Shown here: piece after piece, positions 11,201-14,200 of the stretch
How positions within the stretch are numbered: the first letter of the stretch is position 1
Layout: each line of letters begins with the position of its first letter
Assembly: GCA_951804945.1 (NCBI GenBank)
Contig: OX638154.1
Span: 52,948,001-53,012,000, forward strand
From: Podarcis cretensis
Lineage: Eukaryota
Length of the DNA: 64,000 nt
Direction: 5' to 3'
Program-made: the position numbers and the translations under genes
Notes under the pieces: model-generated
What the model saw: the letters and a program-made list of their open reading frames with translations, nothing else
The model's database searches: none
Told to the model about the DNA's origin: nothing

Positions 11201-14200
11201 TGGACAGTATGGTCCTCTTACAAAGCTCATGTGCTATCATAAATGTGTATGATGCCAAATGGTTATTTGCTGATTATGCAGATTGAGAAACCTCAGTAAA
11301 TACTTCTCGCTCTTTCACGTCTCCAAGCCATCTTTGTTGTTGATTGGCTCTTCTTGTCCTTGCAGAACATGAAGGTAGCCCGAACTCCTACCCACGGGGT
11401 TTGGATGCTGAGCTCCTGTCTGTTGAGCTGGAGAACCAGAGGCTGGAAGATGAGATATTAAAGTTGAAGATCCTGAAGGACAGAAGGAAAATAGAAGATG
11501 GTGGGGACCATAGCCACCTATTGAAGTTGGGCCAAAGAAGTTTAAGATACAGTAGCAGGCATCAATCTCTGCAATTCAGGGCATTGGCATATATATCACC
11601 TAAGCAATCACTTTGATTTGGGGCACTTTGATTTGGAGGTTTAAGTGGAAGTGCAGAGTATTCTCTTTGGACAGTAACCAGATCTGTTTGCTGTTTGCGA
11701 AATTCAGCCTCCATAGTTGTCCATTATGGAGAGAAATAATGAAAGATGGCAGAGATGGGCTGAGTATTCTACTGCAGTGAGCTTGCCAACCAGATTGTGG
11801 TTCATTATTCTCCTGGGCATTTGGGCGGTGCTAAGGTGTGGTGTTTGGTTGTTTATTTTTTATGTTCATCCTTATTCAAGGTGGGATGTGGCTATTTTAC
11901 ATTGTTGGGTTTTTTTGTGGATGAACACTTCTAGTATATTTGTTTTGCTTTATTGCATTTTTATTGATATTGTTTGTTATCCCTGTAAATCACTTTGGAA
12001 CTCCTTTTATGTGAAGCAAATCTACTCATTTGACACATAGATTATACTGCCAGGATTTCCAAGCAGGTCCTTTTTCTTTGTGATTCTACACATACCCCAA
12101 ATTTTCAAGACCACCCAATCTGCAGTATGGAGGTTGCTAATGGCCAAAGGTGCTCCTTGAAATGTTGGGCAGGAAGGGGGCAACATTTCCACAACTAAAT
12201 GGCTTTGGAGATGTAGCTGAAATGTTCAGTAGTGCCAGTCCAGCAAAAACAAATAAGGACATTGAGCTGGCTTTGTTTTTACAAAGAGCCAGATGAATAA
12301 TATGCAGGCTCTTGTCCCACCTCATAAGGATTCTTTCCCAGTATTGGCACAAGCAATAACTGTGTTAATGGGCTCCCCCTGCTCATCTTCTTTTTCATCA
12401 GGGTCTTCAGGCACAGAGCTGGTGCAACTGCAGCGGTTACACATGGCAGAGATGGCTCAGCTGCATGCAGAGATTGGCAGCCTGAGACATGACACAGAGA
12501 GGATGAAGCTAAGACATCCCAAGAGGGGGTCACCACTACCCCGGCTGCCACCTCCTATAGCTCCACCCCTGCCACCTCCTCCCCCTCTTCTTGGATTGCC
12601 TGACCCTACCTTTCCAGCTAGTAACATGGTTAAAAAGGTAAAGGTACCCCTGCCCGTACGGGCCAGTCTTGACAGACTCTGGGGTTGTGCGCCCATCTCA
12701 CTTAAGAGGCCAGGGGCCAGCGCTGTCCGGAGACACTTCCGGGTCACGTGGCCAGCGTGACTTCGCTGCTCTGGCCAGAGTCAGAGCCAGAGCCAGAGCC
12801 GCACACGGAAACGCCGTTTACCTTCCCGCTGGTAAGCGGTCCCTATTTATCTACTTGCACCTGGAGGTGCTTTCGAACTGCTAGGTTAGTGCCCCTTTAA
12901 CTTGGGAAACCTCAGGCAAAAGTCATACTGAATATCTGCTTTTGGAGCGGAAATAGTATAAAAATACTTCTATAGTTTTAATAATTCAGAGCTATCATCC
13001 TGTGTGGCTGGCTCTCTCCATATCTGTGTTCACTCCAGAAAGATGCATCCAGTGGTTCATGCTCTGCTTGTTGCAAATATGCTGACCATTTTGCTCAGGG
13101 GTGAATGATTTATCTGAAGCTGTTGAGTTATATTCTTAAGAGTTTCCTTGAGGCAGCAAGCCTCATTATTCCTCCTAAGACTGATGCTGGTATTTCCTTT
13201 TTCTATTCTTTGGTAATGTACAACAGCTCTCATATTTCTGCCTGCTATAGGACCCCATGAGAGCATCTGCCACAGCTATGAGCCAGTACTTCCTGGACCC
13301 TTCTGATGCCCTGGGACCAGCGCCATATGATCCGGCGTATGTCATTTCTATTACCTGTATTATTCTGGGTTGAGCTAGTGGGAGGGCAGCATATGTTTTT
13401 TTTTCCTGTCTCATTCTTGCATGGAGTATTTGTAGACACTGCCATGTAAAGTGAAGATGTTCATTTTTTCCATCCTAATACCATTCCTAGGGATGCATTT
13501 TGGAATCTAGCCTGTTGAGTCTTTTGGACTGCAGCCAGCTCATAGAAAATAGCTGTTGTAAAGAGTTTGGGGTGGTGGGAGATAGGAGGGTTTAGGCATA
13601 CAGCCTAATTACTGGAAGTGCCTAGAACCCCTGGAATTTCACTTAGCTTGGGGTGGCATGCAAGCTGTGTTAACTATTACATGAGTGTGACAATTATCAT
13701 CTCTCTGCAGGTCTGGCTTTGTGATATTCTATGATTTTCTTTTGGGCCTGGATCCCACATTCTATCAAGTCTGCCTGGTCTCTGGCCTGTTCCGCAATGG
13801 GCAAGAGCTGGGCAAGCCCACCCCACTGCCCGTTGTCTCCTCTGATATGGGTCAATACCCACAGTATGTGACTGATGGGCAAAGAGGGTGCTGCGCCATC
13901 TTAGCAGCTAGGCAACCAGTCCCAAGGTGAGTTTCAGTGGCTTTTGCCATAACATCTCATCTCTTCTGTTCCCGGGTCATTATCTGGGCAGCCATTCCCA
14001 GTTGGCAAAGTTATTTGTTTTCATTGTTTCAATGTATATAGTTTACAGCAAGATAATGCTCAAGACAAATGCAATGATAAGTGGTAGAAGAGTCCTTTCT
14101 AAAAAACAATGCAAAGAAAACCATCTATCATGAACTGCTTTTATCCTGACCCTTTAGAAGACCCAGGGCCCTATCATCTTGGCATGGGAACCACTCACTC

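Follow-up and report, generated by a model that had tools for sequence, protein, structure and literature searches.

A young antisense SINE at the exon 9 splice donor of CCDC17 in Podarcis cretensis, with candidate replacement donors in its tail

Introduction

What happens to an exon when a SINE inserts into its 5′ splice site? The question is raised by a 64,000-nucleotide stretch of the Podarcis cretensis genome (GCA_951804945.1, contig OX638154.1, positions 52,948,001 to 53,012,000 of the forward strand; hereafter the window), in which an antisense SINE lies directly behind an exon of CCDC17. A first-pass annotation of this DNA proposed that the insertion damaged the donor, that it is tolerated because the reversed tail of the SINE rescues splicing, and that such tails may be general donors of 5′ splice sites.

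SINEs that alter splicing are well known, and a further private insertion, in a gene that has been little studied, would be a modest finding. What would matter is a SINE tail that forms a same-frame array of 5′ splice sites and is delivered by a TA-cutting enzyme capable of hitting donors. Published work on Sauria/Squam1 SINEs treats, in the main, insertion signature and phylogeny (PMC13295347, PMC6007223, PMC10670947), and neither "splic" nor "exon" occurs in the accessible text of PMC13295347. The idea of a Sauria tail as a splice donor was not found in the titles and abstracts of the open-licence literature, a scope outside which the original Sauria SINE description falls, and a literature search for CCDC17 returned no title naming the gene among the matches listed.

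Results

The interrupted donor belongs to exon 9 of CCDC17

The exon ending at 12628 was most similar to a Podarcis lilfordi protein (99% identity); next came squamate proteins carrying the name coiled-coil domain-containing protein 17 (CCDC17). Alignment of the 1,454-residue P. lilfordi isoform (P0025) to the window gave 30 exons between 5267 and 29186, separated by 29 GT-AG introns, and placed the SINE in intron 9, at intron position +4 behind exon 9 (Table 1). Exon 9 is single-copy in the 1.5-Gb source genome, and its skipping shifts the reading frame. The exon ends in a proline-rich linker of variable length, in which small indels are tolerated among squamates, as judged from the protein alignment. 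The motifs listed by the first-pass annotation (ATG/GTTAAA, AAG/GTAAAG, AAG/GTACCC, TAG/GTTAGT, the TGA at 12758-12760 and the acceptor at 13251) were all found in place, and a further candidate donor, CTG/GTAAGC at 12831/2, was missing from its list.

Table 1 Features of the CCDC17 exon 9 donor and the inserted SINE (window positions; a slash within a motif marks the cut)
Feature	Position	Strand	Remarks
CCDC17 coding exon, 9th of 30	12402..12628	+	227 nt; SSGTELVQ...PTFPASNM; alignment to P0025; spliced contigs X15, X16
Original donor, ATG/GTTAAA (ancestral ATG/GTTAGT), cut 12628/9	12626..12634	+	predicted weak
Left copy of 5-nt target duplication GGTTA	12628..12632	+	present once in empty alleles
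SINE, 5′-truncated, Sauria/Squam1-type, right duplication included	12633..12888	-	256 nt; positions 119-373 of a 378-nt copy, 99.2% identical
(ACCTTT)n tail, two units	12633..12645	-	sequence; ends in five-T run, counting the target's T
Tail-derived candidate donor AAG/GTAAAG, cut 12637/12638	12635..12643	+	in frame, would add Val-Lys-Lys
Second tail-derived candidate donor AAG/GTACCC, cut 12643/12644	12641..12649	+	in frame, would add VKKVK
TGA within the SINE, in frame with the exon	12758..12760	+	premature stop with any donor further downstream
SINE-internal candidate donor CTG/GTAAGC, cut 12831/12832	12829..12837	+	71 nt behind the stop
Far-junction candidate donor TAG/GTTAGT, cut 12884/12885, with old intron start	12882..12890	+	124 nt behind the stop
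Right copy of GGTTA duplication	12884-12888	+	sequence
Next CCDC17 exon, begins DPMRAS	13251..13336	+	86 nt; phase-0 start; acceptor AG 13249-13250

One of the small indels in the linker is a 6-nt in-frame change (Gln-His) at 12585 in exon 9, which sets the runs X15 and X16, along with several lacertid proteins, apart from the window and the closest sequencing runs. Lacertid annotations of CCDC17 differ, some showing one 1,454-residue gene and others two proteins of ~690 residues, which is either split annotation or a matter of alternative ends; the window holds an unbroken 30-exon model at 5267-29186. A short unspliced contig of X16 lies within intron 8 (12020-12179), as pre-mRNA or DNA carry-over.

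Relatives carry and splice the empty allele

Removal of 12633-12888, which holds one GGTTA copy, restores ATG/GTTAGT, as the first-pass annotation had pointed out. This allele without the SINE was read on single contigs in all six DNA-type runs examined, from five samples and two studies. One contig each of X1, X4 and X2 passes from 12627 straight to 12884, and contigs of X3, X5 and X11 depart from the window after 12632 and continue with the letters from 12889 onward. The ancestral empty allele is real and not mere arithmetic. The site is also spliced: the 12628-13251 junction was present in contigs of both runs guessed to be RNA (X15 and X16, labelled as two other organisms), and these contigs omit the introns precisely. 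At the protein level, all nine lacertid proteins that cover the junction in the cluster of P0001 read NM/DP or NM/DS without an insert (15 members, five of them without coverage of the junction; P0001 itself is the tenth with the same NM/D reading). The orthologue comparison thus bore out the expected empty site, and supports that the SINE damaged a donor used by relatives. Val-Lys-Lys at the junction was found in none of these nine proteins, none of which is known to come from a carrier.

The filled allele was seen in the source assembly only, and the filled junction in none of the six DNA-type runs, which are all contigs, a format that drops rare variants and could miss a heterozygous filled allele. 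A contig of X5 that matches 12634-12651 was rejected as a filled allele, being the tail of another copy that does not reach the exon. In the four closest samples the flanks lie 2 to 4 substitutions from the window in ~1.3 kb, and the allele is empty; therefore the insertion is younger than the split from these samples. The window haplotype differs from every run examined in other private marks, at 12117, at 13611 and in a 26-nt deletion at 12019, so that its own lineage is probably unsampled. The 26 nt missing at 12019 are carried in intron 8 by X3, X5 and X11.

The insertion is a very young, truncated member of a high-copy SINE family

The inserted element lacks the first 118 of ~378 nt, and the minus-strand reading of 12633-12888 ends in ACCTTTACCTTTT. 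We searched the genome with the insert and scored 40 of 633 candidates, the top places being 94-100% identical. The family is dispersed and high-copy, about 350-380 nt at full length (378 nt in the relative L002). All 29 other loci fetched extend upstream into the head that the window copy has lost, where a tRNA-related part with polymerase III boxes would be expected. An Rfam scan of L002 gave no match at E up to 5, tRNA-like or other; full-length relatives carry what we take to be a B-box-like motif. The nearest copies are only two substitutions away, which indicates that the window copy is very young, and one substitution is private to it against 29/29 copies. Its tail has two units, compared with two to four in its relatives.

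The target duplication of the window copy, taken from the sequence and the empty alleles, is 5 nt long, against a median of 12 nt in the 29 other copies. The old donor carries TA at +3/+4, and the target reads TAACC on the SINE strand. The tail is fused to the target's T; at the other end, the truncation point falls where AACC of the SINE coincides with the target, so that four letters of the 5-nt duplication are at the same time SINE sequence. This match makes the duplication short and partly a microhomology, and it makes the far-junction donor half SINE and half target. The first-pass annotation had described that donor as recreated at the far junction. TAG/GTTAGT does stand there, but the exonic TAG and part of GTT are the SINE's own sequence, and we rejected a donor recreated wholly by the duplication. 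Among other copies with a duplication of at least 8 nt (22/29), 20 of the 22 duplications start with T and 14 with TA. That of the window copy starts with TA, with two T at -11/-12 and not the three of a Tn-TA signature.

The name Sauria/Squam1 rests on tail, insertion signature, size and host. Tail, size, host and duplication start fit the published family, which has an (ACCTTT)n tail (PMC13295347, Table 4), duplications that start with T, usually TA, with a T stretch ~10 nt upstream (PMC13295347), and 65,000 to 131,000 copies per lacertid genome (PMC10670947, Table 1). As described for lacertids (PMC13295347, PMC6007223, PMC10670947), there are many young, near-identical copies, with presence/absence differences between close relatives. 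The 3′ region of the family is common to the Bov-B LINE, its mobiliser (PMC13295347), and base pairing between tail and target at priming has been proposed (PMC6007223, with reference to Ichiyanagi and Okada 2008). The window copy departs from these descriptions in its 5′ truncation, its short duplication and its position on a splice donor.

A second antisense member of the family, older than the first, lies at 63896-63991 of the window; it matches at 72% over 87 nt, and its (AAAGGT)n tail is longer and degenerate. A recurrent arrangement among the fetched loci is a one-and-a-half-mer, in which the element's first 185 nt are followed directly by a full copy (L033:1332-1876, L056:1332-1886, L042:1155-1696 and, in part, L031); its junction is common to 17 of the 100 places listed in the search described below. 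In L033 and L056 a single target duplication flanks the whole unit, which was therefore inserted as one piece, unlike L055, a true nested insertion. PMC10702118 reports no true dimers among Squam SINEs. Recurrent template switching or a composite subfamily would account for the arrangement. Five SINE insertions, in L032 and four more places, share the same site of another repeat, a recurrent target; the flank in L032 looks like a degraded coding repeat.

The damaged donor scores below a candidate donor in the reversed tail

We scored donors with a matrix built from the 28 other CCDC17 donors (in bits) and with the duplex energy to what we take to be the U1 5′ end motif (in kcal/mol). Both scores are crude, the matrix resting on 28 sites and the energy being computed without pseudouridine. 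The old donor reaches 6.06 bits and -6.3 kcal/mol in the empty allele, and 3.2 bits and -2.6 kcal/mol once filled, which agrees with the loss of strength that the first-pass annotation had described. The damaged site falls below 28/28 natural CCDC17 donors by U1 pairing and below 25/28 by matrix. It has lost +5G and +6T and kept +3T, and +3T without +5G occurs in none of the 28 other donors.

The tail site at 12637 scored 9.82 bits and -6.8 kcal/mol, above 24/28 natural donors by matrix and above 10/28 by U1 pairing, and in the top 0.6% of the 3,158 GT sites on the plus strand of the window by matrix. It is a predicted donor, a GT with consensus-level flanks and U1 complementarity, and the claim of an in-frame site 9 nt on that would add VKK holds, with scores at least equal to those of the old donor. 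Its 9-mer is the wild-type donor of human BRCA1 c.5277 (PMC12805630, Table 1), and CCDC17 introns 1 and 3 have the donors ATG/GTAAAG and GAG/GTAAAA. The site 6 nt further on, also in frame as claimed, scored 4.77 bits and -5.6 kcal/mol.

Two candidates lie deeper in the insert. The SINE-internal site at 12831 scored 8.4 bits and -8.0 kcal/mol, and the far-junction site at 12884, which retains the ancestral intronic letters and downstream context, 3.46 bits and -7.7 kcal/mol. Thus 12637 exceeds 12628 on both scores, whereas against 12831 and 12884 the scores disagree, since U1 pairing ranks both above 12637. Among near-equal donors, intron-proximal ones often win. Use of 12831 or 12884 would give an exon of 430 or 483 nt that includes the TGA. 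A protein search with the antisense read-through peptide, a weak test, found no match among 13 candidates.

Donor-like targets elsewhere commonly receive in-frame candidates

Next, we searched the genome for GGTAAG placed 4-12 nt after a SINE head, which returned 106 places. We analyzed 84 of the 100 places listed (30 from the search output, 54 fetched), leaving out 16 that repeat a SINE-internal or other-repeat junction; six of the 106 were unlisted. At 55 of the 84 a tail could be detected and the GT lay inside the duplication. The tail junction is unselected in this sample, since the places were chosen on the far end.

The first tail donor was in frame with the old GT at 30 of these 55 targets. 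Across all 55, its distance was 6 nt in 23, 8 nt in eight and 5 nt in seven. After insertion the old site reads GTAAAG in 24, GTAAGG in ten and GTAAAA in ten. For a GTA-type donor, the kind found at 16/28 CCDC17 donors, the default outcome read from these sequences is a mildly changed donor plus an in-frame candidate as a spare, with a share of 28/49 in frame. At a GTTA-type donor, a tail with the commonest end would place the first candidate 7 nt on, out of frame, and projection from the tail-end spectrum of the family gives an in-frame site in 16/49. The five-T run of the window copy is the second commonest tail end. Antisense AAG/GTAAAG is present in every copy with two tail units, and all tail donors of a copy share one frame because of the 6-nt period of the tail.

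The 30/55 in frame exceed one third (binomial p = 0.001, from copies that are not independent), an excess that reflects the tail-end lengths of the family and not selection. At CCDC17 the in-frame outcome, with a chance of about one in three, is too likely to be a sign of selection, and we rejected it as such. The claim that the insertion is tolerated because it was rescued is unsupported: the insertion is young and unseen in the five other samples, whose contigs can show presence but not absence, and with such a chance no selection need be invoked.

A second case at a proven exon end was not found among the 55 targets, an insensitive test. A Pfam scan of 50 upstream open frames of at least 22 residues gave two weak hits below cut-off, and two true CCDC17 exons run as positive controls also scored 0, so that the blank is uninformative. 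The better of the two hits, at L106, was rejected as a second gene example after inspection revealed no exon. The idea that antisense tails are general donors thus stands as a mechanism, with in-frame candidates at 30/55 targets, and is without a second real gene example.

We also compared target counts, which were 106 for GGTAAG against 42 for GCTAAG and 72 for CCTAAG, with window backgrounds of 21, 24 and 19. Repeat junctions make up 22 of the 100 GGTAAG places listed, and once they are removed the remaining excess over the larger control is small. A preference of the SINE for donors beyond TA was dropped.

In sense orientation the tail is five-sixths pyrimidine, and it presumably repeats a branch-point-like motif; sense copies might feed 3′ splice sites.

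Discussion

We lean towards the view that the filled allele is spliced mainly in frame via the tail donors, chiefly 12637, as the scores predict. We propose that a very young, 5′-truncated Sauria/Squam1-type SINE inserted antisense at the TA of the CCDC17 exon 9 donor, presumably mobilised by a Bov-B LINE at its TA target, as is established for the family. The change from ATG/GTTAGT to ATG/GTTAAA would, judging from the scores, have cost the old donor its strength, and splicing would likely have shifted mainly to AAG/GTAAAG nine bases on. Val-Lys-Lys would then be added to the proline-rich linker with the frame kept, and nonsense-mediated decay may remove a minor part of the transcripts, those spliced from 12831 or 12884. 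Read in reverse, the (ACCTTT)n tail would act as an array of AAG/GT donors with a 6-nt period. Because the tail is such an array, the SINE inserts at TA and donors contain TA, an antisense hit on a donor would deliver a same-frame set of new donors. Such a replacement would need no selection, the in-frame chance being about 1 in 3 at a GTTA-type donor.

Rescue of splicing by the SINE tail is therefore best called a reasonable prediction. Weighing against it, the two crude scores disagree on donor rank, the filled allele is known from one assembly, and 0/55 other donor-like targets was shown to be an exon end. Precedents also advise caution. In dog merle, the nearest system studied, a SINE at a splice site gives mixed normal and exonised transcripts (PMC6091007), and polymorphic Alus near exons, where they alter splicing, mostly promote skipping (PMC6326789).

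The same precedents favour a hypomorphic allele, a reading that we consider possible but rather unlikely. Here 12831, 12884, exon skipping and the tail donors would each take a share of splicing, and a large part of the RNA, carrying the stop at 12758 or a frameshift, would be degraded. The allele would owe its persistence solely to its youth, and might be heterozygous or limited to one small population. The best U1 pairing belongs to 12831 and 12884, which lie beyond the stop, skipping is out of frame, and the insertion occurs in none of the five other samples, the four closest of which are nearly identical in the flank. However, with these two sites the 227-nt exon would grow to 430 or 483 nt, a lengthening that exon definition disfavours. 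Further, 12637 ranks first by matrix and probably adjoins the exon's own enhancers.

It is improbable that little has changed, with ATG/GTTAAA still in use because other signals define the exon well, and with the tail sites playing a minor part. The weak CCDC17 donor GGC/GTATGT does work with a matrix score of 1.36 and -2.9 kcal/mol, near the -2.6 of 12628, yet here a much better site lies 9 nt away, and the loss of +5G and +6T with +3T retained is a combination that none of the 28 other CCDC17 donors has. We find it hardly credible that an assembly error or a somatic change, and no heritable allele, underlies the insertion: this would explain why the filled junction is absent from all six DNA-type runs, but not the TA-starting duplication, the clean tail junction, the 5′ truncation at a 4-nt microhomology and the private substitution, and the haplotype's other private differences point to a lineage that was probably unsampled, with an exon that is single-copy.

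The preferred reading, takeover by the tail donor, can be compared with known systems. In dog merle, a SINEC_Cf of similarly recent origin lies in antisense at an intron-exon boundary of PMEL; its reversed tail provides an alternative splice site and, as predicted here, inserts residues in frame into the protein, with the outcome set by tail length (PMC6091007). Merle concerns a 3′ splice site, an oligo(dT) tract and 52 added residues, whereas CCDC17 concerns a 5′ donor, a hexamer array that resembles donors in itself and 3 to 5 residues; merle splicing is measured and that of CCDC17 predicted. With Alu elements the locus would share an antisense SINE that supplies splice signals, and polymorphic insertions near exons that alter splicing (PMC2330237, PMC6326789). 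The parallel drawn by the first-pass annotation, of antisense Sauria tails giving 5′ sites as a mirror of antisense Alu 3′ sites, is loose, since splice sites of both kinds, 3′ and 5′, are found in antisense Alu arms (PMC2330237). With their pyrimidine tract and 3′ site plus a 5′ site, these arms usually give rise to new cassette exons, whereas in CCDC17 a few tail bases would be added to an exon that already exists, without a new acceptor. Strict exonisation of the Alu type was rejected, the reversed tail being purine-rich, (AAAGGT)n, and directly behind an existing exon. Introners, transposons with encoded or co-opted splice sites, likewise carry a splice site at the element end, with most of the element removed from the transcript (PMC12130899). 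They land in exons and make new introns, whereas the CCDC17 SINE sits in an existing intron and would move its 5′ boundary. The pre-existing intron, 366 nt long in the empty allele and spliced in relatives, rules out an introner.

Beyond this locus, we tentatively suggest, as an idea we hold doubtful, that Sauria/Squam1 SINEs are self-healing mutagens of splice donors and a recurring source of tandem donors and Val/Lys micro-insertions. The enzyme would cut at TA, which most strong donors contain, and the tail would anneal in register with the target, so that an antisense hit on G/GTAAG would typically leave G/GTAAAG and further AAG/GTAAAG sites at multiples of 6 nt. If the tail-array rule holds, SINEs at exon ends should be biased in orientation, in-frame survivors should be over-represented, and lizard proteins should carry short lysine-rich insertions at exon junctions; the locus also offers a ready two-allele minigene with five competing donors within 260 nt. 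If the idea is true, with ~100,000 copies per lacertid genome, Val/Lys micro-insertions at squamate exon ends would recur, antisense but not sense copies would survive at exon borders, and CCDC17 would be a self-healing event caught before fixation.
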